A stretch of DNA of 64,000 nt from Leptolyngbya sp. (GTDB lineage Bacteria; Cyanobacteriota; Cyanobacteriia; Phormidesmidales; Phormidesmidaceae): the NCBI GenBank assembly GCA_040374765.1, contig JBEITR010000001.1, forward strand, positions 25,422 through 89,421, in the 5' to 3' direction. Of this stretch, positions 29,013 to 60,145 are shown piece by piece. Both the position numbers and the translations under genes were made by a program. Below the pieces are notes generated by a model. The model was not told where the DNA came from and made no database searches. It worked only from the letters and a program-made list of their open reading frames with translations. The first letter of the stretch is position 1, and every line of letters begins with the position of its first letter.

Positions 29013-29087
29013 GCCAGAGCCCCTATCCGGCCTTCCCTTTGACCGCTCTATTCTATTCCTAGGGTTCTGGCCAAAGCTGTCCATACC
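29013..29087 (+). repeat. Family X copy D
   Basis: 10-bp closing stem GCCAGAGCCC/GGGTTCTGGC. GTTCTGGCCAAAGCT (29064-29078) is identical to 52051-52065. Confidence 0.88.
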
Positions 29088-29135
29088 ATCAACGTCATTG
29101 CGAACTGACCGGTCCTAGCGGAGGGGACTCAGCCT

Positions 29136-29918
29136 ATGCTTCTTCATATTGGTGCTGTACGCCTCGATCTAGACAGTCATCGCCCCACCCCCTGGCAGTC
29201 TCTAGCCCCCCAGGCTCGCCTTCTCTGTGCTCTGATGTTTGTCTTTGCCACAGCCCTGACTCCCCCCGGAGAATGGCTGGTGTGGGGAATCTACGGCCTG
29301 GGATTGGGCGGACTAATCGCCCTTAGTCGGGTTAGCCTGATGGTTTTGCTGAAGCGGGTGGCGATTGAAATGGGACTGGCCGGGGTAGTGCTGGTCGGTA
29401 CCCTCTTTCGCCAGGAAGGGACGGTACTGTGGCATTGGGGAATTTTCCAGGTGACCACGGTGGGGTTGACGGTGCTTGTCAGCGTTAGTCTGAAGGCGCT
29501 GTTATCCCTGGGGATGCTAAACCTGCTGGTATTGACCACGCCAGTATCCGATCTGTTGCAGGGGCTCACCCGTTTGAAAATGCCTCCCCTACTGGTGGCA
29601 ATTTTAGCGGCCATGCACCGCTACAGCAGTATCCTGGTGGCGGAGTTTGCTGCCATGCGGCGGGCCGCCCTGGCCCGTAACCTGATGGCTCGTCGTCAGG
29701 GGCAGCGCCGGGTGATTGGCCACATGATGGGGGCGCTGTTTTTGCGTTCCTACGATCGCGGCGATCGCATTTACCAAGCCATGGTGGCCCGGGGTTACCA
29801 GGGTACCCTGGCCAGGACGACCTTCCCCGCGATGACCTGGCCCGATCACCTGGCCCTGGGAATCATGGCGGGTTGGCTGGCGGCAGGTCAACTGATCCAG
29901 CAGGGTTGGCACGGATGA
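29136..29918 (+). CDS. cbiQ: ECF transporter T component CbiQ/NikQ
   Basis: Multi-TM protein with RSYDRGDRIYQAMVARGY. Confidence 0.92.
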   Translation: MLLHIGAVRLDLDSHRPTPWQSLAPQARLLCALMFVFATALTPPGEWLVWGIYGLGLGGLIALSRVSLMVLLKRVAIEMGLAGVVLVGTLFRQEGTVLWHWGIFQVTTVGLTVLVSVSLKALLSLGMLNLLVLTTPVSDLLQGLTRLKMPPLLVAILAAMHRYSSILVAEFAAMRRAALARNLMARRQGQRRVIGHMMGALFLRSYDRGDRIYQAMVARGYQGTLARTTFPAMTWPDHLALGIMAGWLAAGQLIQQGWHG

Positions 29919-29939
29919 ATATTGTTTCAAGCTAAGGCA

Positions 29940-30743
29940 ATGCACCATAATCCTATTACTATTGAGGACCTGAGCTACTCCTACGATGACGGCACCGTAG
30001 CCCTCAGTCAGATCAATCTGGCCATTGCTGCTGGCGAACGGGTCGCCTTGGTAGGGGCCAACGGTTCGGGTAAGTCAACGCTGTTGCTGCACCTAAATGG
30101 TATTATCTGGCCCCAGTCGGGGCAGATCACGGTGGGGGAACATCCCCTACATCCCGACCATGTCAAGACCATTCGCAATTTCGTCGGGGTAGTGTTTCAG
30201 AACCCCGACGACCAGCTATTTATGCCCACGGTGGAGGAAGATATTACCTTTGGGCCTATGAATCAGGGTCTCCGGGGTAGGGAACTGCTGCACCGCTGTC
30301 ACCATTGTCTCCATGCGGTAGGACTCAACCCAGCAGACTACTTACACCGCAGCCCCGATCACCTGTCGGGGGGTGAGAAACAGCGGGTAGCGATCGCCGG
30401 GGTGCTAGCCATGCAGCCCCAGGTGCTGGTGTTCGACGAACCCACCAGCCAGCTCGATCCCCGTTCCCGTCGTCAGTTGATTCACCTGCTGAAACACCTG
30501 CCCATGACCCAGTTGATCGCTACCCACGATTTAGATCTAGCCCTGGAACTATGCGATCGCACCATTGTCCTAAGTAAGGGCCGCATCGTTCGCCAGGGAC
30601 CCACAGCCCATGTACTCAGCGACCAGGGCTTTCTCCAGGGGCACTCCCTAGAATTACCCTTGAGCTTTAGTCGGCCCTACTGCCAGCTAGAAGATGCTCC
30701 CGTGCGGCTGGCCATGCGAGAGTCTTTGGCCCTATTGCCTTAA
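29940..30743 (+). CDS. cbiO: ECF transporter ATPase CbiO/NikO
   Basis: GANGSGKST, QNPDDQLF, LSGGEKQRV and DEPTS motifs. Confidence 0.93.
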   Translation: MHHNPITIEDLSYSYDDGTVALSQINLAIAAGERVALVGANGSGKSTLLLHLNGIIWPQSGQITVGEHPLHPDHVKTIRNFVGVVFQNPDDQLFMPTVEEDITFGPMNQGLRGRELLHRCHHCLHAVGLNPADYLHRSPDHLSGGEKQRVAIAGVLAMQPQVLVFDEPTSQLDPRSRRQLIHLLKHLPMTQLIATHDLDLALELCDRTIVLSKGRIVRQGPTAHVLSDQGFLQGHSLELPLSFSRPYCQLEDAPVRLAMRESLALLP

Positions 30744-30822
30744 TCCATGAAAGGGGTAGGGCCAGGAGGTTAATCCAAGGTTGCCTGGGGAATAGGGGTC
30801 AGAATTAAGGAGTCAGGATGTA

Positions 30823-30934
30823 GCCAGAACACCTACCTGGCCTTTGCCCTTTCGTGTCTCGTAGCTGATAGGCCTAGTGTTACGCGACATGAAATCGACC
30901 GATCAACTCTATCCCTAGGGTTCTAGCAAAAGCT
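30823..30934 (+). repeat. Family X copy E (long form with apical arm)
   Basis: GCCAGAACACCTA/TAGGGTTCTAGC closing stem, inserted hairpin TTTCGTGTC...GACATGAAA and CAAAAGCT tail. Confidence 0.85.
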
Positions 30935-30985
30935 AGGTTTTATGACCCCTATCGGAGGAAGCAAGCTCCATCTAGGGAGGGGAAC

Positions 30986-31243
30986 CTAGGCTTGATTGAG
31001 TCGGGCCCAGTCCTCGGGGGTATAGGTCTTCAGGGCCAGGGCATGGATGGCAGCAGAGGACATTGCCTCCCGCACGGCCCCGTAGACCAGTTGATGCTGC
31101 TGCACCAGGCTACATCCCGCAAAGGCAGAGGAAACTACTAAAACCTGATAATGATCGCCACCACCGGTTAGATCTTCCACCTGAACATTGGCGTCGGGTA
31201 GGCTGGTCTTAATCATAGCCGCTACCTGGTCTGAACTAATCAT
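30986..31243 (-). CDS. bolA: BolA family protein
   Basis: [15 protein letters not shown] and IHALALKT motifs; ATG at 31243. Confidence 0.93.
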
Positions 31244-31298
31244 GGGTGTGGGTCTCTCTACAACTTTATCAAGGTCAAGCAAACGCGAGCGTGGGTAG

Positions 31299-31375
31299 TA
31301 TGACTTTGGCCAGAATACTTCTGCCCCCTTACCGGGAGTCAGGGCCATACCCAAACCATCCATAGGTATTCTGCC
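31299..31375 (-). repeat. Family X copy K
   Basis: Closing stem GGCAGAATAC/GTATTCTGGC (9 of 10 pairs) plus CAAAGTCATA tail, in the bolA leader. Confidence 0.78.
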
Positions 31376-31638
31376 ACTGAATCCCATGGAAAAGGAGAAT
31401 GGGGTCAAAAGTGAGGCATTGAATCAGACTATGGTTTTCCCAGACATAATCCCTGACCTTGACCCCATCCCTATCCAGTTAGAAGAGGCCGGTTCGAGCT
31501 AAACGACCAAACTAATACCAAACTATCTGGAGAAATCTTGCCCATCCTTTGCCAGTGTGTTTTATTCTTATATAGTCAAGTGCAGTTGCGATCGGCTCTT
31601 ATACCTCTTGAGTTCGGTCTATGACTTGATAGGTTTCT

Positions 31639-31720
31639 GCGGATGTGGTGGAACCGGTAGACACGCACGCTTGAGGGGCGTGTGGCTAACGCCTTGCGAG
31701 TTCGAGTCTCGCCATCCGCA
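31639..31720 (+). tRNA. trnL: tRNA-Leu(GAG)
   Basis: GCGGATG/CATCCGC acceptor stem, CACGC-TTGAGGG-GCGTG anticodon arm and a long variable arm. Confidence 0.96.
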
Positions 31721-31727
31721 TTAATCA

Positions 31728-31783
31728 GACTTTGTCCAAACTGATGAGGACCCAGTGGATGGGTCCCTTGGATGCTTCCTAGC
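31728..31783 (-). repeat. Family X degenerate copy U
   Basis: Minus-strand GTCCTCATCAGTTTGGACAAAGTC matches the 3' half of the family without gaps. Confidence 0.5.
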
Positions 31784-31913
31784 TGACAGACCTATCTCTA
31801 TCTTCTAACTCCTCTACATCGGAGCCAGAGCGATAAAGGCTTGGTTTAAACAGACAGGTCTTGGCCAGACACCCCCTACCGTGGCAAACCAGAAGTAGGA
31901 CTCACCAGCCATT

Positions 31914-32315
31914 TCAATCCTGGTTAGGTTGAAAGTTAAGGGCGGCAGAGTTAATACAATAGCGCTGCCCGGTAGGAGCCGGACCATCATTGAATACATG
32001 GCCCAGATGGGCATCACAGCGGGCACAGAGCACCTCAGTCCGAGCCATAAAGTGGCTAAGATCCCGCTTGGTTTTAAGGTTTTCAGCCTGAGCTGGGCTC
32101 CAAAAGCTGGGCCAGCCCGTACCCGAATCGTATTTAGTATCAGAGGCGAAGAGCTCGGCACCACAACACACACAGTTGTAGGTACCGGCGGCTTTATGGT
32201 CGTAATAGGCTCCGGTGAAGGCCCGTTCCGTACCATGCTTACGGGTAATCTGATATTGCTCAGCAGTGAGTTGCTGTTGCCATTCCTGGTCAGTTTTTTC
32301 AACTTTTCCCGACAT
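31914..32315 (-). CDS. msrB: Peptide methionine sulfoxide reductase B
   Basis: [29 protein letters not shown] and RYCINS motifs. Confidence 0.97.
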
Positions 32316-32355
32316 AAATCTTAACCTGTCAATTCTTCCTCCATGATAGATGAAT

Positions 32356-32462
32356 TATGACTTTGGTCGGTAGGCTAAGGAGCCGGTTAGTCGGTCAAAA
32401 CGGAGACTAGGTAGGGGGTATGACTTACCTTGAGGGGTAGGTACAGCCTTCAGTAAAAGGCT
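32356..32462 (-). repeat. Family X copy O
   Basis: 69-nt core (32356-32424) is 44/69 identical, ungapped, to 52000-52068. It is preceded by the 5' hairpin AGCCTT/AAGGCT. Confidence 0.75.
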
Positions 32463-32502
32463 TCGCCGTTGCTCCGCCCCCTGTCTACCCCGTTGTCCAG
32501 GA

Positions 32503-33576
32503 CTAAGACCTGGTAGCGTCACCATTTACCCTCGTTCCATTAGGGATGCCAGGGGTAGAAGAGCCTGTTGGAGAAAAACCAGGTGTTTGCTCAGATAGTT
32601 CTGGCCTGCTGCCATTAGCAGGCACCAGGAACGGCTGGGTTTTCATCCCCGGGGCTGGAGTGGAAACCTCAAGTCCAGTGAGGGTAATCATGGTTTCCCC
32701 TGGGCCCCTGACCTGGGAAAGGAGTCTAGAATCCGGAACCGCCGCCTGACTGTTCAGCTCCCGGGCATGGAAGCCATCGGGTCCATTGGGGAGCTTAGTG
32801 GGCGGCGTTAGGGAAGGCAGGCCCCCCTGGCGCAGGCCATAGCTCTGGTGCTGGAGAGAAGCCTCGACTACAGAGGTAGGGGTCTGGATCGGTGCAACTT
32901 GAGCAGCACCCGTAGAGCTAACAGTAGGAGTAGAGACAGCTGCCACAGGCTGAATAGATGAAAGCTTTGGGGGACTGGCTGGGGTAGGGATGGAGGCGAC
33001 AGGTGCTGATGACCGGGAGGGAACGGATGGAGTAGCCGCCGCTCCCCCATACAAGGGCCCCACAGAGGGAACAACAGCTGGTCTAACGACGGAGCGATCG
33101 ATCCGACCTAAACTCTCAGGTAGTCTAGCCACGGTAAGGGCTTCGATTCTGGTCGGTGGAGAAGGAATGGTCACCGACCTAGACCTCATCAGGACCTCCC
33201 GTTCCTGCCGTAGTTGCTTTAATCGGGCCGTAACCTGCTCAGCGGTAGGCGAGGTAATATTCAGGGCCGTAGACTCTCCCGATTGCCCCAAACTTAGGGG
33301 TAATCGCAGTTCTGGCTTGGTGGCAGAACCTGAAGCAACCGTTGCTACCTTAGCCTTAGGCTTGACCTGGGCATGCCCCTTGTCTGCAGTGGAGGATGAG
33401 TCTACCTCAGGAGCTTGGGGCTTGTGATGGTTCCAGGCTGTCAAAGTCAGCAGGCCACCGCAGGATGCCAGGGTGCAAACACGAATGGTCGAATTGTTCA
33501 TGGTCTTAATCAGATTACTTTTACCGTTCATCAGGCTAACTACGTATAAATATAGATACAGAGATATTTGGGACAA
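32503..33576 (-). CDS. Hypothetical Pro/Ser/Thr-rich protein
   Basis: 357-codon ORF filling the gap between msrB and the DMT gene, with a hydrophobic N-terminal segment and a short coiled coil. Start uncertain. Confidence 0.65.
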   Translation of the reverse strand: MSQISLYLYLYVVSLMNGKSNLIKTMNNSTIRVCTLASCGGLLTLTAWNHHKPQAPEVDSSSTADKGHAQVKPKAKVATVASGSATKPELRLPLSLGQSGESTALNITSPTAEQVTARLKQLRQEREVLMRSRSVTIPSPPTRIEALTVARLPESLGRIDRSVVRPAVVPSVGPLYGGAAATPSVPSRSSAPVASIPTPASPPKLSSIQPVAAVSTPTVSSTGAAQVAPIQTPTSVVEASLQHQSYGLRQGGLPSLTPPTKLPNGPDGFHARELNSQAAVPDSRLLSQVRGPGETMITLTGLEVSTPAPGMKTQPFLVPANGSRPELSEQTPGFSPTGSSTPGIPNGTRVNGDATRS

Positions 33577-33659
33577 TCAGAATAATCTGGCTCGTTAAGT
33601 GTGAAGATTTCCTATAAATATGGTTCCCAGGTTTACAGATATAATTGCCAGTGATGCTC

Positions 33660-34541
33660 ATGAATGGTGAATTAGCCGCCTTAGGTGCAGCCTTTCTGTG
33701 GGCAACTGCCACAATGATGTTTGGTCAGTTGGGTAAATCCCTCTCACCCCTGTTACTGAACCTGGCCAAAGGGGCGATCGCGATCGGTCTAATTCTAGTC
33801 ACCCTGCTCCTGTTAGGGCGCCCTGCCACCGGCCTGGAACCCAGGCCCATCCTGCTATTGATCCTCAGTGGCATGGTGGGCATTGGTCTGGGGGATACGG
33901 CCTATTTCACCGCCATTAACCGGATTGGAGCACGGCAGGCCTTATTACTGGAAACCCTGGCTCCAGCCATGGCAGCCGGGTTGGCCGTGATCCTATTGGG
34001 AGAAAGCATCGGTCTACAATCCTGGGCCGGTATACTACTCACCCTGGCAGGAGTTAGCTGGGTGATCAGCCAGCGTCTCCCCCAGCCAGAAGAACGTTCT
34101 CTTCAGCCCGGTGGGGGAATTGTCTATGGTGTTCTAGCCGCCCTAGGGCAGGCTACTGGGGCAGTCCTATCGAGGGCGGCCCTGGCCCACAGTCCGATCA
34201 ATCCCCTGTGGAGTTCGCTGTTGCGGCTCATCGGAGGCGGGCTGTTAATTATCGCCATTCTGGTCCGACAAGGGGAAGTCAGACAGCAGATCAGGCCCTT
34301 GCAGAATTTTAGGATCATCGCCATGGTGGGGCTGGCAGCCCTGTTGGGCACCTATCTGGCGATTTACTTGCAGCAGGTTGCCCTCAAGCATAGCGCCGCT
34401 GGCATAGCCCAGGCCCTGACCGGTACCAGTCCTTTGTTTGTGCTGCCAATGGCGGCGGCCCTCGGCGATCGGGTGAATGGGCGCACGGTAGCAGGGGTAG
34501 TTATCGCCCTGGTGGGGATGTTTCTGCTGTTTAAGAGATAG
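33660..34541 (+). CDS. DMT/EamA family transporter
   Basis: About 10 TM segments with two EamA repeats (GIGLGDTAYF, SPLFVLP). Confidence 0.9.
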   Translation: MNGELAALGAAFLWATATMMFGQLGKSLSPLLLNLAKGAIAIGLILVTLLLLGRPATGLEPRPILLLILSGMVGIGLGDTAYFTAINRIGARQALLLETLAPAMAAGLAVILLGESIGLQSWAGILLTLAGVSWVISQRLPQPEERSLQPGGGIVYGVLAALGQATGAVLSRAALAHSPINPLWSSLLRLIGGGLLIIAILVRQGEVRQQIRPLQNFRIIAMVGLAALLGTYLAIYLQQVALKHSAAGIAQALTGTSPLFVLPMAAALGDRVNGRTVAGVVIALVGMFLLFKR

Positions 34542-34549
34542 CTAGAGCC

Positions 34550-34570
34550 AGGGGATATAGCTTTGGCCAG
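34550..34570 (-). repeat. Family X partial 3' copy F
   Basis: Minus-strand CTGGCCAAAGCTATATCCCCT, 19 nt identical to 17064-17082. Confidence 0.65.
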
Positions 34571-34617
34571 CAACTTTTCACCCGTTATCCTCAGCTCCGA
34601 CTCAACCCGTCGATCCC

Positions 34618-35961
34618 CTAAAACACAAACTCTAATACAATCTGCCAGGTTTTTTCCTGGGGGTGAGGCTGAGGATTAATCTGAATGCGGCGAATAAATT
34701 CCCGAAAGAAAAAGCGTCGCTCAGTCTCCGAGAGATCCAGCCAAAATTGGGGAAGGGCCACCGACTGGGAAAGTTCTTGCAGATTAACCGGAGGCAACTG
34801 GGCTCGTTGCCGCTCAATCTGGGCAATTTCTCCCTGGAGTTTATAGCGGCGCAGGGCAGCGGTTTCTGCATCTAGCACTCCCTCCTTAACCAAACTGGGT
34901 AACTGTTGGAGAACCCTCTGCCTTTGCTCGATTTCCCGTTGTAGCTGGGTGGTAGGAGAGATGGGATTATCTCCCTGTCGGGGAGGTTGCAATTGGGCCA
35001 CCGCCTGCGGTAGGTCCTGACAGATTTGATCAATGATGGCTTTAAGCACTTGATCGTAGGGGATGGCCCGACAGCGGGGAGAATGGGGACAATGGGCTGG
35101 TCTTAAGTAGAGGTAGGCCTGGCTCCGGCCCCGGCGGGTTGTTCTAGTAATGGTGAGGCCCCCCCCACAGCGTTGGCAATGGACCAAGCCCGCCAGCGAT
35201 CGGGGGGCTCCGGCGGTACGGGAGGGCAACTGACTGTTGCGGCGCAGTAACCGATCGATTTGGGCAGCTTCGTCCCGGCTAATGATGGCCGCATGGGTAT
35301 CCCGAATTACCTGACCATCCTGGTATTGCAGATCTCCCCGATAGACCGGATGGGTGAGCCAGCGACGCCCCGTAGAGACGGCTATGGGTTTACCAAAGCG
35401 GTTGTCCACAAACCGCACAGCTCCGCGCAGCGATCCGTACAGCAAAAATTCGTTAACAAAGGCGGTAACCACCGGGGCGGTAGTGCGATCCACGAGATAA
35501 CGATCCTGCCCGCGGCGGTAGCCGTAGGGGGCTTTACCAGGGGGTGGTAGGGCCTGCAGACGATTACGGGCATGGCCCGTACGGAGCTGCCGGCGGCGCA
35601 GGCGATCGGGTAAGGCAGCCAGGGTCTGTAAACTTCCAGCCCAGTCAGGGGCTTCTGTCGCCAGACCTGGGTCAACTGCCGCTGAAGCAACATCGACGAC
35701 ACGGCTACCCATGGCTTGCAGGGCCTGGCAGAGAGCCTCGATCTCAGCCAGGCTATCTCCCAGGGACTCCAACCCCGCCACCAATACCAGATCGGCCGGA
35801 TGATGCTGGTTATCAGCCATAAGTTGGGCCAATTGGGGGCGGTAGCTGGGTTCGGCAGGCAACCGGGTATCTTCGTAGAGTCGTTCAAGAACATAGCCCC
35901 AGTTGGTGAGGGGCGGCTGAGGCTGGGAGGACTCCAGGTAGCAATAGGCAACTACGCGCAT
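34618..35961 (-). CDS. Large serine recombinase-like protein with degenerate catalytic motifs
   Basis: Resolvase-like N-domain, recombinase domain (PPGKAPYGY), zinc ribbon (HCQRCGG...CPHSPRC) and coiled coil. Confidence 0.85.
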   Translation of the reverse strand: MRVVAYCYLESSQPQPPLTNWGYVLERLYEDTRLPAEPSYRPQLAQLMADNQHHPADLVLVAGLESLGDSLAEIEALCQALQAMGSRVVDVASAAVDPGLATEAPDWAGSLQTLAALPDRLRRRQLRTGHARNRLQALPPPGKAPYGYRRGQDRYLVDRTTAPVVTAFVNEFLLYGSLRGAVRFVDNRFGKPIAVSTGRRWLTHPVYRGDLQYQDGQVIRDTHAAIISRDEAAQIDRLLRRNSQLPSRTAGAPRSLAGLVHCQRCGGGLTITRTTRRGRSQAYLYLRPAHCPHSPRCRAIPYDQVLKAIIDQICQDLPQAVAQLQPPRQGDNPISPTTQLQREIEQRQRVLQQLPSLVKEGVLDAETAALRRYKLQGEIAQIERQRAQLPPVNLQELSQSVALPQFWLDLSETERRFFFREFIRRIQINPQPHPQEKTWQIVLEFVF

Positions 35962-35963
35962 AG

Positions 35964-36013
35964 TTTAGAACGCCTGCTGAAGGGACTCTCGCAAGGCCAG
36001 AGCTATCCATACC
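35964..36013 (+). repeat. Family X collapsed copy V
   Basis: TTTAGAACGCCTGC...ACTCT...GGCCAGAGCTATCCATACC. The tail differs from that of copy D at only 2 of 19 positions. Confidence 0.6.
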
Positions 36014-36188
36014 CCGGTGTGAGCAGCCAGTTAGGTAGGAATCTAATCCCTTTTCCTCTCACTATAGCTGGAGCTACGGGTAAGGGATCAGCAAGGGGGG
36101 TGGCCGTAGGGATTTAATCTAAAGCAGAGATTACCCTACTACCTCGTGACCATGGCAAGATAGGGAAGTAGGTTAGGGGACATCTCTG

Positions 36189-37151
36189 GTGCAGATTACA
36201 TTTCTAGGAACCAGCTCTGGCGTACCAACCCGGTCTCGCAACGTCTCCAGTGTGGCTTTGCGGTTACCCCAGCGAAGTGAAGTTTGGTTGTTTGACTGCG
36301 GCGAGGGTACCCAGCACCAATTTCTGCGCAGTGAGTTTAAATCCAGCCAGATTCGCCGTATTTTTATTACCCACATGCACGGCGACCATATTTTTGGTCT
36401 GATGGGGTTACTGGCCAGTTGTGGGTTGGCGGGTAATCGCCAGCAATGCATCGATATCTATGGTCCCAAGCCTCTGAATGATTATTTACAGGCCTGTCGA
36501 CGGTATTCCCATACCCACTTTAGCCTGCCCATTAAGGTCCATGGGGTGGAGCCTGGCCTGGTTTTTGAGGATAGGGAATATCGGGTGATGTGCGATCGCC
36601 TGGAGCACCGCATTCCTGCCTACGGCTATCGGGTAGAGGAGCGGGATCGACCTGGTCACTTCGATGTTAAACGGGCCGAGGCTTTGGGCATTCCCCCCGG
36701 TCCCATCTATGGTCAACTCAAGCAGGGTCTACAGGTAACCCTGCCCAATGGGCGTAAAGTAAATGGGGCCGACCTCTGTGGGCCTGACCTGGTGGGGCGT
36801 AAACTGGTCTACTGTACCGATACCATTTACTGCGATCGCTCCGTTGCCCTGGCCCACCAGGCTGATGTTTTAATTCACGAAGCCACCTTTGCCCACCAGG
36901 ATGCTGGATTGGCCTACGAGCGCCTCCATTCCACTTCCACCATGGCTGCCCAGGTAGCCCTTGGGGCTCAGGTGAGGCAGCTAATTATGACCCACTTCAG
37001 TCCCCGCTACGCCCCTGGCAACGATATTCAACTGAGCGATCTACTGACGGAAGCCCAGGCAATTTTTCCCAGTACCACCATGGCCCACGACTTTATGATC
37101 TATAACATTTTGCGCCAGGAGGAAAAAACCTTGCTATCTTCAGCTTCGTAG
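36189..37151 (+). CDS. rnz: Ribonuclease Z
   Basis: [34 protein letters not shown] and THFSPRY motifs. Confidence 0.96.
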
Positions 37152-38265: not shown

Positions 38266-38271
38266 AAAAAC

Positions 38272-42011: not shown

Positions 42012-42196
42012 ACGGCTTTCCATAACTACAGCCCCCGAGGCTGGTGGATAGCCGTAGCCACGGTCAACGGAGCGGAGGCGAGCAGGAGTGCCCCCCTGGT
42101 ATTACCGTTTTCATAGGTCGTCACAGAAAATCTGTCAGTTACCAGCCATGCAATTAATCGGTTAACTCTGTCCTTAGCCTTCTGGGCAAAGCTATC
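42012..42196 (+). repeat. Family X copy R1 (longest form)
   Basis: 5' hairpin ACGGCT...AGCCGT; linker 42055-42082 is 24/28 identical to the reverse complement of 60104-60131; 42138-42173 is 26/36 identical to 30879-30914. Confidence 0.85.
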
Positions 42197-42230
42197 TATT
42201 TCCCAAGGTGCTTGCTAAGGATTTCAAATC

Positions 42231-42299
42231 CCCTGCATGGGAAGCCAGGACAGCTCTTAACCGATTGACTCTGTCCTAAGCAGACTGGCCAAGGCTACA
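42231..42299 (+). repeat. Family X copy R2 (tandem with R1)
   Basis: CCGATTGACTCTGTCCTAAGCAGACTGGCCAAGGCT, 103 nt downstream of the same segment in R1. Confidence 0.8.
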
Positions 42300-42303
42300 C
42301 AAA

Positions 42304-42342
42304 GAAATGACATGGCCTTTACTGCTAAAGCCATGTCATTTC
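42304..42342 (-). terminator. Intrinsic terminator of ndhCKJ
   Basis: 13-bp perfect stem GAAATGACATGGC/GCCATGTCATTTC followed by a U-rich tail on the minus strand. Confidence 0.75.
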
Positions 42343-44186: not shown

Positions 44187-44344
44187 AAACTTGACCACAA
44201 CCCTAAAGAGAGAGCCGACAGACAGTACGAAAGCCTCGTAACTGACCAGCTAGTCTCGGATTACGAGCCATTGATAAGATGAAGCCTGGATAGGCATTCT
44301 GGCTAACCTCCGTCCCGTTACCCGGAACTACGGCTTTAAAGGCC
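44187..44344 (-). repeat. Family X copy N (long form)
   Basis: First 50 nt are 37/50 identical, ungapped, to the copy at 60036-60145. Apical stem CTCGTAA/TTACGAG and AGGGTTGTGGTCAA 3' arm. Confidence 0.88.
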
Positions 44345-50311: not shown

Positions 50312-50377
50312 TCCAGTCAGGCTGCAGCTCTCAGCCTATAGCCTATGGCACTGCCATCTTGTCCTAACCGGACTGGT
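50312..50377 (+). repeat. Family X copy X
   Basis: Closing stem CCAGTCAGG/CCGGACTGG (8 of 9 pairs). TGTCCTAACCGGACTGG closely matches copy R2. Confidence 0.55.
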
Positions 50378-50425: not shown

Positions 50426-50457
50426 ATTTAGAAATATTGCAATATCATTTAGAAATA
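50426..50457. promoter_or_regulatory. AT-rich operator-like site (Fur-like) between exbB and the PHP gene
   Basis: Perfect palindrome ATATTGCAATAT (50434-50445) flanked by two ATTTAGAAATA direct repeats 21 bp apart. Confidence 0.5.
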
Positions 50458-51408: not shown

Positions 51409-51422
51409 CCTAGGAAACCTGA

Positions 51423-51824: not shown

Positions 51825-51984
51825 CCCGGTCATGCGGAGGCGAAATGTTTCTCTATAGACTCAAGCCTTGTTGTATAGGGATAGCCAGAATCCTTCGCTG
51901 CCAGGGATAGTTGAGGATTGGGACAAACGCCCTTTGATAAAAGAGCTATTTAAGGACATCCTTTCGGCCCCATGGCTCAGGGTT

Positions 51985-52070
51985 ACGGCGGGAAGGTGCG
52001 TCAGCACGCCTACCCAGTCTTCGCTTTTGCCGATAAACTCTGTACTAAACGTTCTGGCCAAAGCTCTATA
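51985..52070 (+). repeat. Family X copy A
   Basis: 59-nt stem-loop at 52000-52058 is 46/59 identical, ungapped, to the reverse complement of 60046-60104. Confidence 0.9.
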
Positions 52071-52091
52071 TCATCTCCCTACCCTGACACC

Positions 52092-53432: not shown

Positions 53433-53552
53433 GCGGTGAGTTACAAGGTAGATCTCCAGTTCCTAAGCCGGACGAAGGTGATTAACCCTGGAAAAATTTT
53501 TCTGCAGAAATCAAGGTAACGTGGTCCGGATGGAGGCGCACTATTAGTCCCT

Positions 53553-54491
53553 ATGGTTATGGCTAACTTTAACAGTCCAGGCGATCGCCCCCTACTGATT
53601 ACTGGTGTGAGTGGCTTTCTGGGCTGGCATCTGAGTCGCTTAGCAAAAACCACAGGGCTGGTACAGGGTACCTACCACCGCCATCCGGTGGACCAGCCAG
53701 GAGTTGCGGTGGCCAAAATCGACCTTACCGCCAGGGTCGGGCTATGGTCCTGGCTGGTGGATCTAAACCCAACGGCGGTAATTCATACAGCTGCCCTCTC
53801 CCAACCCAACCACTGTGAACAAAAGCCCGACCAATCCTACGCCATCAATGTGATCGCTACCCGTACCCTGGCGGAGTTTTGTGGTAGCCGGTCTATTCCC
53901 TTTGTGTTTACCTCCACCGAACAGGTCTTCGATGGAGAAGCCGCTCCCTACTCAGAAGTCAGTACTCCCCACCCCATTAATACCTATGGCCATCACAAGT
54001 TAGAAGCCGAGGGTATGATTCGGGAAGTACATCCCAACCCCATCATTTGTCGGTTACCCCTGCTCTATGGACCGGCCACCCCGATGGCCGGATCTTTTCT
54101 TCAAGGCTTTTTGCAGACCTTAGCCGCGGGCCAACCCCTGTCTCTGTTTGTTGACGAATTTCGTAGTCCCGCCTACGTCGAAGATGTGGCCTATGGTCTG
54201 CTGTTAGCCCTGAAAATCGGAGTAGATCTAATCCATCTAGGGGGACCCGAGCGGATCAGCCGCTATGAATTTGGCTTGCGGATGGCAGAGGTATTTGACT
54301 TACCGCAAGACTTGCTGATTCCCAGCTATCAACGGGATGTAACCATGCCCGCCCGCCGACCCGCCGATGTCTCTACCGATAACCGTCGAGCCCTAGCCCT
54401 GGGGTACCATCCCCGCGGGGTAGGGGCCGGGCTCCAGGCTGTTAAGCAATGGCAGGCGATCGATGGTAGTAACCCGGCCCAGTTCCATTAA
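53553..54491 (+). CDS. RmlD-like NAD(P)-dependent oxidoreductase
   Basis: ITGVSGFLG, STEQVFDG, YGHHKLEAE and DEFRSP motifs. Confidence 0.87.
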   Translation: MVMANFNSPGDRPLLITGVSGFLGWHLSRLAKTTGLVQGTYHRHPVDQPGVAVAKIDLTARVGLWSWLVDLNPTAVIHTAALSQPNHCEQKPDQSYAINVIATRTLAEFCGSRSIPFVFTSTEQVFDGEAAPYSEVSTPHPINTYGHHKLEAEGMIREVHPNPIICRLPLLYGPATPMAGSFLQGFLQTLAAGQPLSLFVDEFRSPAYVEDVAYGLLLALKIGVDLIHLGGPERISRYEFGLRMAEVFDLPQDLLIPSYQRDVTMPARRPADVSTDNRRALALGYHPRGVGAGLQAVKQWQAIDGSNPAQFH

Positions 54492-54517
54492 AATGATAAG
54501 GCTATCCCGTAGGCAGA

Positions 54518-55759
54518 ATGGCCATTCCTTCCCTCGACCTTGACTATGTACGCCAGCAGTTTCCCGCCCTGGGTCAGGGCTGGACTTTTTTTGATAATGC
54601 TGGTGGCTCCCAGGTACTGAGGGGCGTGGTGGACCGCATCAGCGAGTTTCTGTACGGATCTAATGTCCAGTTAGGGGCTTCCTATGCCCTTTCCCAGTTG
54701 GCGGCGGAACGGGTCGCCGCTGGCACCCAAGCCATGGCCACCCTGATCAATGCCGCTGACCCTGGCGAGGTGGTGTTAGGCTCCAGCACCTCGGCTCTGT
54801 TGCGAATGCTGGCGCAGTGTCTGGGGGCTACCCTGGCTGCAGGGGACGAGATTATTGTTACCAATAGCGATCATGAGGCTAATCTGAGTCCCTGGCGGTC
54901 TCTAGCCTGCATCGGTATAACGGTAAAGACCTGGGCCGTTAACCCCACTACCTTTGAGCTGGATCTGGCCGATCTAGAGGCCTTGCTGACTCCCCGCACC
55001 CGCCTGGTGACGGTGACCCATACCTCTAACGTGTTGGGCACCCTAAACCCAATTCGGGCCATCGCCGATCGGGTCCATGCCCAAGGAGCCTTAGTTTGTG
55101 TTGATGGGGTAGCCTTTGCTCCCCACCGTCAGATAGATGTCCAGGCGCTGGATGTGGACTTCTATAGCTTCAGCCTCTATAAGGTCTACGGCCCCCACAT
55201 TGCCCTCCTCTACGGCAAGCGCGATCGCCTGTTGGCCTTGCCGGGCTACAATCACGATTTCATCGAAGCCAGCGCCATTCCCTACAAGTTTCAGCCGGGG
55301 GGCACCTGTTACGAGTTGAGCTATAGCCTGGTGGCGATCACGGAGTATTTACAAAACCTGGCCCAGCACCACTGGGGAGCGGCGATCGGAGTGACCCCAG
55401 CCGATCAACTAGGTCAGGCCTTTGCCCTGATTGAGGCCCACGAAGCCCAATTGGGGGACCGCCTGTTGAGCTTTCTGAACTCCAGATCGGGGGTACGGGT
55501 AATCGGTTCTACAAGTGCCGACGGCAACCAACGCGTCCCCACCATTTCCTTTGTGGTAGAAGGCTTGGGGAGCGATCAAATACCGCCCCACCTGGATAGC
55601 CAAAGGATCGGTCTGCGCTCTGGCCACTTCTATGCCCCCCGCTTAATCGAGGCGTTGGGCCTGCTACCCCACCAAGGAGTTGTCCGGGTTAGTATGGTGC
55701 ATTACAACACCCTGGAGGAGTGCGATCGCCTGATTGATCACCTCAGTCCCATACTGTAG
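54518..55759 (+). CDS. Class V PLP aminotransferase, cysteine desulfurase-like but lacking the catalytic Cys
   Basis: FDNAGGSQ, FSLYKVYGPH (PLP Lys) and RSGHFYA in place of RxGHHCA. Confidence 0.85.
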   Translation: MAIPSLDLDYVRQQFPALGQGWTFFDNAGGSQVLRGVVDRISEFLYGSNVQLGASYALSQLAAERVAAGTQAMATLINAADPGEVVLGSSTSALLRMLAQCLGATLAAGDEIIVTNSDHEANLSPWRSLACIGITVKTWAVNPTTFELDLADLEALLTPRTRLVTVTHTSNVLGTLNPIRAIADRVHAQGALVCVDGVAFAPHRQIDVQALDVDFYSFSLYKVYGPHIALLYGKRDRLLALPGYNHDFIEASAIPYKFQPGGTCYELSYSLVAITEYLQNLAQHHWGAAIGVTPADQLGQAFALIEAHEAQLGDRLLSFLNSRSGVRVIGSTSADGNQRVPTISFVVEGLGSDQIPPHLDSQRIGLRSGHFYAPRLIEALGLLPHQGVVRVSMVHYNTLEECDRLIDHLSPIL

Positions 55760-55781
55760 AAATTCCCCTGCTTATCTGCCT

Positions 55782-58700
55782 ATGTCCCTCTCCTCACTGC
55801 AAGCCCAGCTCGACCGCTACTATCGCCAGATCAAAACTACGATTCTGGTACGCCAGCATCCCGTCAGTGGATTGATGCCCGCTAGTACGGCAGTGAATAG
55901 CCACGGTAACTACACCGATGCCTGGGTGCGCGACAATGTCTACAGCATTCTGGCCGTATGGGGTCTGGCCCTGGCCTATCGCCGCCTGGATGACGACCAG
56001 GGCCGCACCGTAGAGCTGGAACAAAGCGTGGTCAAGTTGATGCGGGGATTACTCCTAGCGATGCTGCGTCAAGCCGCTAAAGTCGAGCGCTTTAAGGAGC
56101 GGCAGGACCCCCTGGAAGCCCTCCACGCCAAGTATGACACCGCCACCGGTACTCCCGTAGTGGGAGACGGCGAATGGGGGCATCTGCAAATTGATGCCAC
56201 CTCTGTGTTTCTGCTGATGCTGGCCCAAATGACCGCCTCCGGGCTTCAGATTATCTATACCCTGGATGAAGTTAACTTTGTCCAGAACCTGGTGTACTAC
56301 ATTGGTCGCGCCTACCGGACCCCCGACTATGGGATTTGGGAACGGGGAAACAAAATTAACCACGGCAAGCCAGAGCTCAACGCCAGTTCCGTGGGCATGG
56401 CTAAGGCGGCCCTGGAAGCTATGCGGGGGATGAACCTCTTTGGTATGCGAGGAGGACAGGCTTCCATGATCCACGTACTCCCCGATGAAATTGCCCGGGC
56501 CCGTATTACCCTAGAATCCCTCTTACCTCGGGAGTCAGGATCGAAGGAGGTAGATGCGGCTCTGCTAAGTGTGATTGGCTTCCCGGCCTTTGCCATGGAG
56601 AATGCCGATGTGGTGCGCCAGACCCGTCAGAAAATTATCGATAAACTACAGGGTCGCTATGGCTGTAAGCGCTTTCTTCGGGACGGTCACCAGACCGTTA
56701 TTGAAGACACCAGTCGCCTGCATTACGAACCCGAAGAGCTGAAACAGTTCGAGCATATCGAGTGTGAGTGGCCCCTATTTTTTACCTATCTGTGGCTCGA
56801 TAGTCTGTTTAGCGGCGATCGCGACGCTATTGCTGACTATCGAGAACGTCTGGCGGACCTGGCGATCGATGATGATGGCCAGGCTCTCTTACCCGAACTC
56901 TACTACGTCCCCGCCGACAAGCTAGAACTGGAACGCCAACAGCCCGGTAGTCAAAACCGCCAACCCAACGATAACCTGCCCCTAATCTGGGCTCAAAGCC
57001 TCTACCTGCTGGGCCAACTGATCGACGATGGTCTGCTCAAACCCGAGGATCTAGACCCCCTGGGCCGCCACCGTCTGGTGGGAGAGCAACGCTACCCAGT
57101 ACTTCAGTTAGCCCTGCTGGCCGAAGATAGGGCCCTGCGGGAGGAACTCAGTACCTATGGCCTGACTACCCAAACCCCTGCGGAAATTGCTCCTATTCAG
57201 GTATTTCCGGCCACCGAGTTATCGGCTATTTACGCCGAAATTGGCAAAAATCCAACCCTGGGCCTGAGTGGACGCCCCATCCGTCGGCTGCGGAGCTTAA
57301 CCACCTCGCGCATCTTTCGCATTCAAAACAGTCAGGTGGTCTTCCTGCCCTCTTTCCTAGACCAAGAGCGGTTTTACCTCACCCTTGACTACCACTTTCT
57401 GGTAGCCCAAATCCGTAGTGAACTGGCCTACATCTACGACCATTGGCGGGAACCTGGTCGCCCCACCCTGACCCTACTACTCACCCATGCCATGTTTCAA
57501 CTGGGCCATAAGCCCATCCATGAATCCCCCCTGTTGGCTCTGATGCAGGAACTAATGACCGGGCGTTGTGACCATGTACCGGTCAAACTCGCCCCCCTAC
57601 ACCAGCTGATCATGACCACCAGCCTAGAGCGGGTAGATAATCTCAACAACTACCAGTTGGGTAGTAGCGCCATGATCTATCCTTCGCCCTGGACTGCCTA
57701 CCTGGGCTTTGAACCCAATCGAGATGGGCCGCTATCGGTGGTAGAAGAATTTGACCTGGAACGAGAAACTAATCTGGAACGGCTGCTGGCCCAACTCCAG
57801 GCCTCTAACAATGTCTATGCACAGGTGGAACTGCTCAGTACCCTCAAACACCTCAAAGGTCTGGGTTTTGATACAGGCCTAGGGGGTCCCCAGCGTCGGG
57901 TAACTGTCACCGATCTACTAGATGAGATCTATGCTAAGGCCAGCCAGCTAGAACAGTGGGATATTTTGCGGCGGACAGCGGGTCTACTGGAAAAAACCGA
58001 CATCAGTCTATCGGATGCGGTGACGGAGTTACTCGTCAGACAAAAGCAAATTTCCGTGGGCAAGGCCTACAGCGAAGATTCCCTGATTACCGAGCCCATG
58101 GCCCATGGGGAAATTATTGAGAAAATTCGCACCTTCTGCGGCGACGATGTACGCGATCATGTCCTCACCCAGGAGGTCTTAATTGACTTGAGTTTGCTAA
58201 TGAAGGCCGAACCCAGCCTTTTTAAGGGTCTCCTCACCCTACGGGTAGGCTACCTACTGCTGCTGCTGACCAGCGAACTAGCTCGAGAGCGACAACTTCC
58301 CCAGGACGAAGCCTACGGGGAACTGCTCAGCCTCAGTCCCTTTGAACTAAAAACTCGCCTGCGTCAGGTACTGGCCGGGTTTAGTGGACTAAACCAATCG
58401 ATTTTTCAGCGGGAGTCTTTGCGCGTTAAACCCCTCACCGATATCAACTGGGAGGTGCTTCCAGCCGAAGTTGAAAAAGCGCCAGTCGAGACCGCTACCA
58501 GCCCTCAGGATTGGTGGCGCAAGCGGGTAATTGATGGGGAGATTACCCGTATTCCCTCAGAGTTTTATACCCAATTGTGGGAAGTACTTAAACACTGCAA
58601 AGGCATTGTGATTGGTAACAAGCTAGATCGTAAGAATCGCCTGGATAGCGCTTCCATTCTGTCGGAGATGACTCCCGGCGAACAAAATTTCGAGCGTCGG

Positions 58701-59015
58701 ATTACCCACTTGCTTAGTAAGATCGAAGCTCCTGAGTATCGCCATGTCAATTTGGAGGCACTACGGGAGATGGGAGAAATCTTGAAGGTTAATCCCGATC
58801 TCTACTTTGAAGACTATCTCTATCTAGATGTATTGATTGGCCACGCCGTGCGTATAGGTTGGCTAGACCACCAGCCTCAACGAGCATCAACCTACGAAAG
58901 TGATAAAGCAGCGGCCTGGCAACGCTTTTATCAACTCTCCCCCAGCCAGTGCGCCACCTACATTGCCAGAGCCCTAGAATTTCTAACCGAATTGGGGGAA
59001 CCAGAGGCTGCTTAA
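55782..59015 (+). CDS. GH15-like phosphorylase kinase alpha/beta subunit homolog
   Basis: DAWVRDNVYS, WGHLQIDA, PDYGIWERG, YGCKRFLRDG and EWPLF motifs; about 1077 aa. Confidence 0.9.
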   Translation: MSLSSLQAQLDRYYRQIKTTILVRQHPVSGLMPASTAVNSHGNYTDAWVRDNVYSILAVWGLALAYRRLDDDQGRTVELEQSVVKLMRGLLLAMLRQAAKVERFKERQDPLEALHAKYDTATGTPVVGDGEWGHLQIDATSVFLLMLAQMTASGLQIIYTLDEVNFVQNLVYYIGRAYRTPDYGIWERGNKINHGKPELNASSVGMAKAALEAMRGMNLFGMRGGQASMIHVLPDEIARARITLESLLPRESGSKEVDAALLSVIGFPAFAMENADVVRQTRQKIIDKLQGRYGCKRFLRDGHQTVIEDTSRLHYEPEELKQFEHIECEWPLFFTYLWLDSLFSGDRDAIADYRERLADLAIDDDGQALLPELYYVPADKLELERQQPGSQNRQPNDNLPLIWAQSLYLLGQLIDDGLLKPEDLDPLGRHRLVGEQRYPVLQLALLAEDRALREELSTYGLTTQTPAEIAPIQVFPATELSAIYAEIGKNPTLGLSGRPIRRLRSLTTSRIFRIQNSQVVFLPSFLDQERFYLTLDYHFLVAQIRSELAYIYDHWREPGRPTLTLLLTHAMFQLGHKPIHESPLLALMQELMTGRCDHVPVKLAPLHQLIMTTSLERVDNLNNYQLGSSAMIYPSPWTAYLGFEPNRDGPLSVVEEFDLERETNLERLLAQLQASNNVYAQVELLSTLKHLKGLGFDTGLGGPQRRVTVTDLLDEIYAKASQLEQWDILRRTAGLLEKTDISLSDAVTELLVRQKQISVGKAYSEDSLITEPMAHGEIIEKIRTFCGDDVRDHVLTQEVLIDLSLLMKAEPSLFKGLLTLRVGYLLLLLTSELARERQLPQDEAYGELLSLSPFELKTRLRQVLAGFSGLNQSIFQRESLRVKPLTDINWEVLPAEVEKAPVETATSPQDWWRKRVIDGEITRIPSEFYTQLWEVLKHCKGIVIGNKLDRKNRLDSASILSEMTPGEQNFERRITHLLSKIEAPEYRHVNLEALREMGEILKVNPDLYFEDYLYLDVLIGHAVRIGWLDHQPQRASTYESDKAAAWQRFYQLSPSQCATYIARALEFLTELGEPEAA

Positions 59016-59018
59016 AAT

Positions 59019-59038
59019 CCCCTGAAAGAGGGGCTTTT
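59019..59038 (+). terminator. Probable terminator of the GH15 gene
   Basis: CCCCT-GAAAG-AGGGG followed by CTTTT, 3 nt after the stop. Confidence 0.55.
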
Positions 59039-59075
59039 CAAACATCTCACCAGCGTGGAGTAAAACCCCATCGAC

Positions 59076-59232
59076 AGTTTTAGCCAGAATAGTTCGAACA
59101 GGGCTAGTCAATCAATTAAATGTCCCGGCATTGATCTATGGCGAGCCCCAAAGGGAATCCTGGATAGGTGTTCTGGTTTGCCCCAAGGGCTGTTTGAAAA
59201 AGCTATTGAATCCAAAGAGCTTTCAAACAGCC
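59076..59232 (-). repeat. Family X copy G with an expanded 5' hairpin
   Basis: Minus strand reads GGCTGTTTGAAA...TTTCAAACAGCC hairpin, GCCCTTGGGGCAA linker, ACCAGAACACCTATCCAGG...ATTCTGGCTAAAACT. Confidence 0.78.
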
Positions 59233-59322
59233 TTACCGCCCTGTTAAACCTGTCTAACGCTATAGACTGTTGTCAGTCCTGTGCTATCGGTTAGAGCTTC
59301 TCGGCAACCCCAGTATTTTTCT

Positions 59323-59733
59323 CTAGAGGATTGGAACCTCTCCAATGGTTGGGAGGCCGGACTGACGGTCACTGAGGTAGTAGCTCCACCGTGCAACGTA
59401 GGGGGCCTTAGCCACCAGATCTTCGGGAAGCTTTAAATTCTTATTGGCAAGGGAGAAGTCGGGATTAGCCGATCTAATTTCAACCTGCTGTCCGGACCGG
59501 ACCGGGATCTGAGGTGTTGAATCAATATTTCCTATAGTTCGCCCCGACCAGGGGTCTACGTCTTGAGGGTAAAAAGAATTAGAGCGATTAGGCGCAGCAA
59601 TAATGGCTATAAGGGTGGTGACAATCACCACAACTAAAGCATCAAAACGGTTTAGTTCAATCGATCTACCAGGAGACCAGGGGGTAAAGTCTTTCATAGT
59701 AAAAGTGGTTAAAACCACAGGATTGGGGGTCAT
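59323..59733 (-). CDS. Hypothetical single-TM protein with a pilin-like helix
   Basis: DALVVVIVTTLIAIIAAP resembles the type IV pilin N-terminal helix; start uncertain. Confidence 0.55.
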   Translation of the reverse strand: MTPNPVVLTTFTMKDFTPWSPGRSIELNRFDALVVVIVTTLIAIIAAPNRSNSFYPQDVDPWSGRTIGNIDSTPQIPVRSGQQVEIRSANPDFSLANKNLKLPEDLVAKAPYVARWSYYLSDRQSGLPTIGEVPIL

Positions 59734-59989
59734 TTAGTCTGAGTCTGTCTCCAGACTTATGTCGTATAGGTTAGCTACAAATCCTGGGTCCAGCTATTGG
59801 GCTGTCGCACTCTTGACAAGCAATCGGCTATGTATTAAAACTCTTAAGTTTTGAATTTTTCCAGGGCTAAATTAACCAATAAAAAAGGGGTCTGACCCCT
59901 CTTTCGATACCCTTTTGACACTTTTGACAGAAGATATTGTGGCAATCGGTAGACAAGCTAACCGGCAGAAAACTCAGGGAGTAAGGGTG

Positions 59990-60021
59990 AAAAAAAAAGC
60001 TACCTGCTGGGGGAGGTAGCT
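59990..60021 (-). terminator. Intrinsic terminator of groESL
   Basis: 8-bp stem AGCTACCT/AGGTAGCT followed by a run of about 8 T on the minus strand. Confidence 0.8.
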
Positions 60022-60035
60022 GCGAAGAATATTGG

Positions 60036-60145
60036 TATAACTTGGGTCAGGACGCTGAGTACAGAACTTATCGACAAAAGCAAAAGCTGAGTAAGCGTTC
60101 TGACTCGCCTCCATACCGTTGAGCGTGGCTAGGGCTTTAAAGGCC
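60036..60145 (-). repeat. Family X copy B
   Basis: GGCCTTTAAAGCC 5' hairpin, linker, GTCAGAACG...CGTCCTGAC stem and tail. Lies between the groEL stop and its terminator. Confidence 0.9.

Follow-up and report, generated by a model that had tools for sequence, protein, structure and literature searches.

Family X, a short cyanobacterial repeat probably moved by an IS630-family transposase, and the matched arms of its stem

The RUP repeat (repeat unit of pneumococcus) was reportedly linked by Oggioni and Claverys in 1999 to the element IS630-Spn1, with duplication of a TA at the target. At 107 bp, RUP is a MITE (miniature inverted-repeat transposable element), and other small MITEs such as ERIC, Correia, and Nezha are already known (PMC3184786). 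Correia elements of Neisseria (CREE or NEMIS) have TATAG[CT] termini, duplicate their target, and are present in hundreds of mostly intergenic copies, and when RNA is transcribed through them their inverted repeats fold into hairpins (PMC2649163). Among cyanobacteria, the MITEs Nezha, MaeMITE, and Muzha are 130–435 bp long, share terminal inverted repeats (TIRs) with insertion sequences (ISs), are flanked by direct repeats, and are predicted to form stable hairpins (PMC3184786). For ISY100 (ISTcSa) of Synechocystis, a transposase with two helix-turn-helix (HTH) motifs protects the whole of an imperfect ~24-bp repeat, 30 bp per end suffice for transposition, and the TA target is duplicated (PMC2170065). 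Herein, we describe a repeat, called family X, that occurs in a 64,000-nucleotide stretch of DNA from Leptolyngbya sp. (positions 25422–89421 of contig JBEITR010000001.1; hereafter “the window”) and in many other places of the same genome.

We consider it probable that family X is a MITE moved by an IS630-family transposase, and that the copies in this genome are neutral fossils. An original prediction, made from the letters of the window, took base changes in the main stem of the repeat to mean that sequence drifts while pairing is kept, which would point to selection on an RNA or single-stranded DNA (ssDNA) structure. Part of this holds, given that the arms are complementary across active lineages, but the copies of this genome decay neutrally. 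Moreover, selection on a folded strand is not required, because the arms correspond to the inner halves of IS630-type TIRs, which are double-stranded binding sites that need to resemble each other. Although elements of this kind, namely small TA-duplicating MITEs, are well known, family X is apparently undescribed as a family. A literature search, which was not exhaustive, revealed no MITE described for Leptolyngbya or Nodosilinea.

A dispersed repeat with TA-flanked inverted ends

The host genome is a 3.49-Mb Nodosilinea-like draft in 120 contigs with 53.7% G+C, whose 2,492 GCGATCGC sites are the HIP1 signature of cyanobacteria. A profile hidden Markov model (HMM) built from five window copies gave 295 matches at E<1e-3. 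Two rounds of rebuilding followed, and the resulting profile yielded 470–503 nhmmer matches in the genome at the same threshold, which bears out the proposal that family X is a repeat family. The 18-mer GTTCTGGCCAAAGCTATA occurs 159 times when up to two mismatches are allowed, compared to 0 occurrences of the reversed control. With about 500 dispersed copies, family X is a genuine repeat; it occupies ~1.5% of the genome and has a modal length of 102–103 nt. Identity to the consensus averages 74% and ranges from 61 to 89%, with no copy above 90%. Judged by our own crude gene calls, 462 of 470 copies are intergenic, in all spacer types and both orientations, and those in spacers between co-directional genes are more often sense (157) than antisense (98). 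No Rfam family covers any copy, whether at the gathering score on the whole window or at E<=5 in positions 28000–61000.

When the best copies are lined up by profile HMM alignment, a sharp border is evident at both TATA ends, TATAGCC...GCTATA. The element is laid out as (T)ATAGCC-NTAGCCAC-..GGGGCGGAGGCGA-GCCAGAACG-CCTACCCAGYCTTRGCTTTSACCGATCAACCCKGTCCTCAG-CGTTCTGGC-CAAAGCTATA, or, with its target site and with slashes at the element borders, as TA/TAGCC-GTAGCCAC...GGCGA-GCCAGAACG-(41-nt middle)-CGTTCTGGC-CAAAGCTA/TA. Terminal inverted repeats are present (TATAGC.../...GCTATA), and the inner blocks GYCAGAACG and CGTTCTGRC are likewise inverted, with a spacing that is asymmetric between the two ends. 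The internal (main) stem comprises 9–10 bp. Being shorter than 300 bp, non-coding, and dispersed in many copies, family X has the features of a MITE, and its inverted ends and TA duplication do not fit REP/REPIN-RAYT or IS200/IS605-derived elements, which have subterminal hairpins, neither terminal inverted repeats nor a duplicated target, and an associated Y1 transposase (no search aimed at such a transposase was made). Conservation within the genome is highest in the 3′ tail, ...CAAAGCTATA, and where this tail joins the flank the sequence is often TATAAT-like.

One clean pair of filled and empty sites documents insertion. The host carries ..GTTA[ TGGCCCTAGCC...CAAAACCA ]TAATTGG.. at C60:31520-31710, compared to ..CTTAATTGG.. 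in Deming_bin.353, a sister Nodosilinea metagenome-assembled genome (MAG). At the filled site, the TA occurs twice, once on either side of an element whose own ends are TAGCC...GCTA. In Leptolyngbyaceae C42_A2020_001, near-identical copies occupy unrelated sites, each with a TA on either side, and this indicates recent activity of the family in that genome. Orthologous empty sites for these copies were not found among relatives at about 70% identity, which are too distant. Between genomes, MITE copies are 85–92% identical (locus L049 compared with genomes G045, G046, and G047) while adjoining genes are ~70% identical. Such a difference points to horizontal transmission, either of the element or of its partner IS, or to strong constraint on active copies.

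A search for DDE_3 (Pfam PF13358) transposases in six genomes supplied IS630 loci for comparison; most comparison genomes are MAGs. The family profile detected no element homology on the first IS630 (PF13358) loci. A 13-nt terminal pattern gave two inverted matches at a locus (L135) of Cyanobacteriota D1_MAG_00067 (hereafter D1). Here, positions 1016–1982 (G042:C214) form a 967-bp element with TA flanks and 27-nt TIRs, located inside an IS21-like transposase gene. Its ends, TATAGCTGTCGCCAAGACACTTAGGAC and TATAGCTGTCGCCAAGACTGTTAGGAC (TATAGCTGTCGCCAAGAC..TTAGGAC), are identical to each other at 25 of 29 positions. The transposase is of the IS630 family (NF033545, 134.8 bits with a cut-off of 100; PF13358, E=1.9e-39), and its frame is split by a stop into an HTH part (1085–1315, ending in TAG) and a DDE part (1486–1962). 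An uninterrupted copy of the target site, sought to show the TA duplication of this IS, was not found.

The ends of the MITE are homologous to those of this IS. Read inwards, the right end of the D1 MITE, TATAGCTTTGGTCAGAACACTTAGGAC, is identical to the L135 IS end at 22 of 30 positions, and the first 14 nt of the left end match the L135 TIR at 13 positions. In addition, the MITE and the IS end of D1 share a lineage-specific A at pair 9 of the stem. C42_A2020_001 contains the remnant of a related transposase (L220; 77% identical over 52 residues) that terminates in TATAGCTATGGACAGAACTATTAAGACA, which agrees at 23 of 30 positions with the right end of the MITE of that genome. Other DDE_3 loci in C42_A2020_001 and ULC077 are without family X-type ends. 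The L135 transposase has no match in the host genome, which has short DDE_3 fragments only, or in Deming_bin.353, and this fits a family that is unable to move there. A parent element in the host genome was also sought through 5′-only and 3′-only matches within 4 kb of each other, and the sole candidate (on contig C32) consists of two unrelated partial copies around ordinary genes.

These data are consistent with a mechanism in which the element inserts at a TA dinucleotide, duplicates it, and, being gene-less, is mobilized in trans by an IS630-family transposase. The right-end ~27–30 nt, including the 3′ stem arm, correspond to one complete TIR, the predicted transposase-binding site. The left end holds the same two blocks (TATAGCC.. 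and the inner GYCAGAACG), set apart by an inserted ~22-nt hairpin. The main stem would then reflect pairing between the inner halves of the two ends, with the 5′ arm displaced inwards by the hairpin. Because one protein must recognize both ends, active elements would keep their arms alike and lineages would come to differ by matched changes. Matched arms would likewise be expected if elements arose anew from IS variants whose two ends are alike. We infer that binding by transposase, and not a folded strand of RNA or DNA, keeps the arms alike. In the host genome, the cognate transposase appears to be gone, and the old copies decay neutrally by substitution and internal deletion; the few compensated pairs in these copies would mostly be inherited from variant source copies.

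Decay of the stem within a genome and matched arms across lineages

The sister genome Deming_bin.353 was found by a pattern scan of public genomes, and the window is syntenic in it at 93–94% identity. We sampled 1.18 Mb of this MAG, which contains 207 family X copies. Both flanks were found for 174 host copies, and an orthologous copy of like length exists for 135 of these, indicating that nearly all insertions are older than the split from Deming_bin.353. Divergence is 12.05% for the element overall, 8.9% for the non-coding flank overall (7.0–10.7% in 30-nt bins), and 4.9% for the coding flank. Within the element, the values are 12.4% for the 5′ stem arm, 11.6% for the 3′ stem arm, 12.7% for the loop, 14.7% for the 5′ hairpin plus linker, and 9.2% for the 3′ tail, which is the slowest part. 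This ordering is the same when A/T, G/C, and CpG sites are taken separately. Among single stem changes, 44 break a pair, 60 make a pair, and 54 keep a pair. Deming_bin.353 has 650 paired cells, compared to 654 ± 4 when the 3′-arm changes are dealt randomly, and pair-preserving doubles number 5 versus 3.1 ± 1.5 expected. The family X copies are the least constrained DNA locally, and they undergo simple neutral decay.

Divergence at CpG sites is ~1.5 times that at the remaining G/C sites, in the element (17.5% versus 11.8%) as well as in the flanks (14.5% versus 9.4%). Given that each arm has a CpG at pairs 8 and 9, parallel transitions can yield A-T and T-A pairs by mutation alone. Length differences between the host and Deming_bin.353 are mostly internal deletions, which explains the many 5′-truncated and 3′-only fragments. 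Retroposition, which might also leave 5′-truncated copies, is ruled out by the same comparison. The 3′-only matches in other genomes share no upstream homology. In two related MAGs (loci L095 and L101), 3′-only fragments occupy orthologous positions and the sequence downstream of them (GCTATACTATCRACACAGGTTTT...) is conserved; thus, some remnants persist across species.

Pairing statistics within the host genome were computed per pair from 266 copies with ungapped stems and in sum from about 360 copies. At pairs 1 and 3–8, pairing nearly equals the product of the column frequencies. A slight excess is seen at pair 2 (0.82 versus 0.77 expected) and pair 9 (0.48 versus 0.42). By corrected mutual information over ~5,000 column pairs, pair 9 ranks 26th and pair 2 ranks 100th, with the other stem pairs unremarkable, and no column pair of the element exhibits excess complementarity above z=2.6. 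For the whole stem, 73.4% of 3,250 cells are paired, compared to 71.9 ± 0.4% in shuffles. Compensated doubles number 159 against 125.7 expected (ratio 1.27), and the excess of ~33 cells derives from pairs 2 and 9 only. Background column pairs with complementary consensus have a ratio of 1.02 ± 0.09, and therefore the stem excess is real (about p=0.005). This low background ratio also led us to reject age heterogeneity as its source. The simplest reading is that the excess at pairs 2 and 9 descends from variant source copies. For this genome, the majority consensus folds with z=-1.3, and the window copies fold no better than shuffled sequence (z +0.2 to -1.9).

Across lineages, the picture is distinct. 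When 30 sequences drawn from 15 genomes are aligned, RNAalifold returns a 10-bp main stem and the 5′ hairpin domain. Paired cells amount to 94.0%, compared to 88.9 ± 0.6% in shuffles (0/500), and cells changed on both sides number 32, compared to 10.9 ± 2.5 (0/500). The covariation score is 0.261, versus at most 0.088 with partners slid; the underlying events are few and are inherited by many rows. Lineage consensus sequences differ at pair 2 (GCCAG...CTGGC versus GTCAG...CTGAC, C-G/T-A), at pair 8 (AACG...CGTT versus AAAG...CTTT, C-G/A-T), and at pair 9 (...ACG/CGT... versus ...ACA/TGT..., G-C/A-T), the last with G.T intermediates. Consensus sequences of active lineages fold with z=-4.8, -4.0, and -3.2. 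The arms of family X are thereby kept complementary in active lineages, a covariation that is equally expected for paired TIRs and for a structured RNA. A 5′ hairpin, GCCAY-N7-RTGGC, occupies element positions of about 11–27 in the left end and is absent from the IS630-family TIR.

Several observations weigh against the interpretation of family X as an IS630-mobilized MITE with neutral host copies. Only a single clean empty site is available, and most presence/absence differences are internal deletions. The ISs with matching ends comprise one intact element (L135, with a split frame) and one remnant (in C42_A2020_001); beyond that remnant, no IS with these ends was detected in C42_A2020_001, where the MITE copies are near-identical. 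The ends are asymmetric, in that only the left end has the ~22-nt hairpin between its two blocks. With regard to the cross-lineage alignment, the 17-mer used for collecting sequences fixed most of the 3′ arm, which left pairs 2, 8, 9, and 10 and the 5′ hairpin free to vary. The innermost pair of this hairpin, 16-22, does vary (GC 15, CG 5, AU 3, GU 2), and neither the covariation of the 5′ hairpin nor the matched changes of the apical arm found in longer variants (see below) are explained by TIR symmetry. Finally, on the element strand in this genome, single changes of the G.U type (256) slightly outnumber those of the A.C type (212), and G.U-type intermediates are also commoner across lineages. 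An excess of G.U over A.C would fit strand-specific structure or uncontrolled strand-biased mutation.

These observations give some room to alternative explanations. If family X were a structured RNA, either a cis-regulatory module of 5′ or 3′ untranslated regions or a small RNA, its stem would be under selection at the RNA level. Such an RNA would account for the cross-lineage covariation in the main stem and 5′ hairpin, the strong fold scores of the active-lineage consensus sequences, the mild sense bias between co-directional genes, and the slight G.U excess. However, we judge this to be very unlikely given that the copies match nothing in Rfam at gathering or E-value thresholds, sit in both orientations and all spacer types, diverge between orthologues faster than the non-coding flank with stems as fast as loops, fold no better than shuffles in the window, and have ends that share homology with IS630-family TIRs, along with a TA duplication. 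A folded ssDNA hairpin serving a Y1 (HUH) transposase, as for IS200/IS605-derived or REP/RAYT elements, is hardly credible. The sharp 3′ boundary ~9–10 nt beyond the foot of the stem, the many copies that retain the 3′ part only, and the hairpin covariation agree with it, whereas the ends are inverted repeats (TATAGC/GCTATA) homologous to TIRs of the IS630 (DDE) family, the single empty site reveals a TA duplication, and the 3′-only fragments are deletion remnants, as seen on comparing the host with Deming_bin.353. The inverted ends, TA duplication, and TIR homology likewise rule out a TnpB reRNA or IS200-IS605 right end, which the sharp 3′ border and the hairpin might have suggested.

A further possibility is that some copies of a MITE have been co-opted, for example if the TATA-rich 3′ end provided an outward -10 box or if the hairpin, once transcribed, were a target of RNase III or RNase E, as demonstrated for Correia and ERIC elements, with weak selection acting on this subset. 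This idea is compatible with mobilization by an IS630-family transposase and gains from the sense bias, from the 3′ tail, which is both best conserved within the genome and slowest to evolve (9.2% versus 11–15% elsewhere), and from the properties of Correia elements (PMC2649163, PMC3184786). However, divergence of the non-coding flank is matched even by the 3′ tail, and we regard co-option as rather unlikely. It is also conceivable, but quite unlikely, that the folded strand itself (terminal helix, 5′ hairpin, 10-bp stem, and apical arm) is under structural selection in active lineages, beyond anything that transposase binding at two similar ends would demand. Such a strand might work as DNA while the element transposes, or as RNA when transcription runs through it. 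We favor the explanation that family X is a MITE dependent on an IS630-family transposase.

Copies of family X in the window

To examine the stem in individual copies, 59 nt were taken on the + strand from each start named in the original prediction, and base i was paired with base 60-i (a 9-41-9 register). The copy at 51981..52076 (+; nhmmer E=1e-21) has arms at 52000-52008 and 52050-52058 with the sequences GTCAGCACG/CGTTCTGGC, and its 3′ end is ...CAAAGCTCTATA. Eight of the nine pairs form, including T.G at pair 2 and G-C at pair 9, with a C x T mismatch at pair 6. The fold of this copy has z=-0.27, and its minimum-free-energy structure does not use the stem. The copy at 29005..29089 (+; E=2.6e-14; fold z=-1.53) has arms at 29013-29021 and 29063-29071, GCCAGAGCC/GGTTCTGGC, that pair at 9/9 positions, with C-G at pair 2, G.T at pair 7, and C-G at pair 9. 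The third copy, 60030..60136 (-; E=6e-19; fold z=-1.90), has arms at 60046-60054 and 60096-60104, GTCAGGACG/CGTTCTGAC. Here, all nine pairs form on the + strand, with T-A at pair 2, G.T at pair 6, and G-C at pair 9; read on the strand of the element itself, pair 6 becomes A x C.

Of the five hairpins originally proposed, these three are upheld, whereas those at 50312 (2/9 pairs) and 31375 (4/9 pairs) are not formed in the same register. Neither of the latter has a match to the family HMM at E<10, and by alignment they are at best very degenerate relics. Near 50312, positions 50313..50375 (+) can form a 9-45-9 hairpin with 8/9 pairs, whose 3′ half resembles ...GTCCTAAGCGTTCTGG.... For 31375..31433 (no strand assigned), family membership is unsupported; the region contains only a 7-37-7 hairpin near 31377 with 6/7 pairs, and it folds with z=-0.34 without the stem. 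Hairpins of the 9-41-9 geometry with at least 8/9 pairs start at 217 + strand positions of the window, and therefore a single hairpin of this kind means little.

The fate of the individual base changes follows from the standing of these copies. The series T.G, T-A, and C-G at pair 2/58 is indeed present in the three solid copies. At pair 9/51, G-C (52000 and 60046) and C-G (29013) are found, but the G-C of 50312 and the A-T of 31375 belong to doubtful copies. Similarly, A-T (52000 and 60046) and G.T (29013) are present at pair 7/53, while C-G there comes from doubtful copies only. The T-A reported at pair 8/52 is confined to the doubtful 50312 and 31375, as is the T-A at pair 6/54, where C x T (52000) and G.T (60046) are seen among the solid copies. 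A lack of covariation, or a neutral pattern of stem substitutions, had been named in advance as the outcome that would speak against a selected structure, and this is largely what the window and genome copies exhibit.

Additional copies are present in the window. A copy with a degraded stem lies at 21446..21523 (+; E=6.4e-10; fold z=-0.58), another at 1452..1529 (+; E=3.8e-9; fold z=+0.22), beyond the range originally inspected, and a third at 32348..32431 (-; E=7.3e-11; fold z=-0.91), which was missing from the original list. At 44273..44335 (-; E=6e-9), a copy is represented by its 5′ part, which covers model positions 10-73, and repeat D6 pairs this stretch with 60087-60145. More diverged copies are located at 59070..59186 (-; E=8.7e-5) and 13090..13170 (+; E=6.6e-5). 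A weak 3′-end fragment at 34548-34572 (-; E=0.086) adjoins an open reading frame of 447 amino acids at 34618-35961 (-).

Longer variants of about 150–190 nt carry an additional arm in the middle of the element. In the window, one such variant occupies 30809..30941 (+; HMM segments 30809-30852 and 30897-30941), and its between-arm segment is deleted in Deming_bin.353. Another, of about 148 nt, is at 42049..42206 (+; HMM segments 42049-42110 and 42142-42206), where it starts with gATAGCCGTAGCCAC and ends with CAAAGCTATC; the 3′ part of a further copy follows in tandem at 42252..42304 (+; E=3.2e-7). Others were seen elsewhere in the same genome (C47:24726-24899 and C63:23661-23805) and at loci L126, L073, L058, and L121. 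In these long variants, 45–70 nt are inserted at one constant position, with GCTTT on one side and GACCGATCAAC on the other, and this insertion folds into a hairpin of its own (for example, ATGGCTCGTAAC...GTTACGAGCCAT). This apical arm exhibits matched changes between copies and lineages (CTCG/CGAG versus TTTC/GAAA in L058). The insertion may represent either a small palindromic element nested in family X or a structural arm that is optional.

Rfam searches of the window also identified tRNAs. The default run on the whole window gave those at 17956-18037 and 18050-18121, and a permissive run over 28000-61000 gave one at 31639-31720 (+), at 51.6 bits compared to a gathering score of 29, that was not reported by the default run.

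Comparison with described elements

For genome scans, our findings mean that matched stem changes are not sufficient evidence of RNA structure when the repeat is a dispersed one. Among active lineages, the paired ends of a transposon give the same covariation, even though the copies of any one genome may be neutral fossils. Family X is spread through Leptolyngbyaceae-type cyanobacteria and is tied to an IS630-family partner, and it should be useful for annotation, for the dating of insertions, and for tracing horizontal transfer.

Family X resembles RUP in its length of ~100 nt, in being non-coding and intergenic with a high copy number, and in having TIRs related to an IS630-family element. 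In contrast, the two share no sequence similarity and belong to different phyla, and family X has an asymmetric left end with a hairpin as well as an optional apical arm. The MITEs Nezha, MaeMITE, and Muzha differ in their hosts, which are Nostocales and Microcystis, and in their partner ISs (ISNpu3 for Nezha).

The likeness to Correia elements extends to the size classes, which are 104–108 and 153–157 bp for Correia compared to 102–103 and about 150–175 nt for family X. Past the first six bases, however, the sequences part (Correia, GGATTAAC...; family X, CGTAGCCA...). Family X does not carry the 26-bp Correia repeat TATAG[CT]GGATTAA..., and TATAG[CT] alone is common. The enzyme that mobilizes Correia elements is not known (PMC2649163), whereas an IS630-family element with matching ends exists for family X. 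Promoter, IHF, and RNase III functions have been demonstrated for Correia elements.

ISY100, a cyanobacterial member of the IS630/Tc1-mariner family, provides the mechanistic model for our reading of the family X ends. ISY100 is autonomous, whereas family X is non-autonomous and its likely partner is a 967-bp element of the L135 type. ISY100 is set beside family X on the basis of mechanism.

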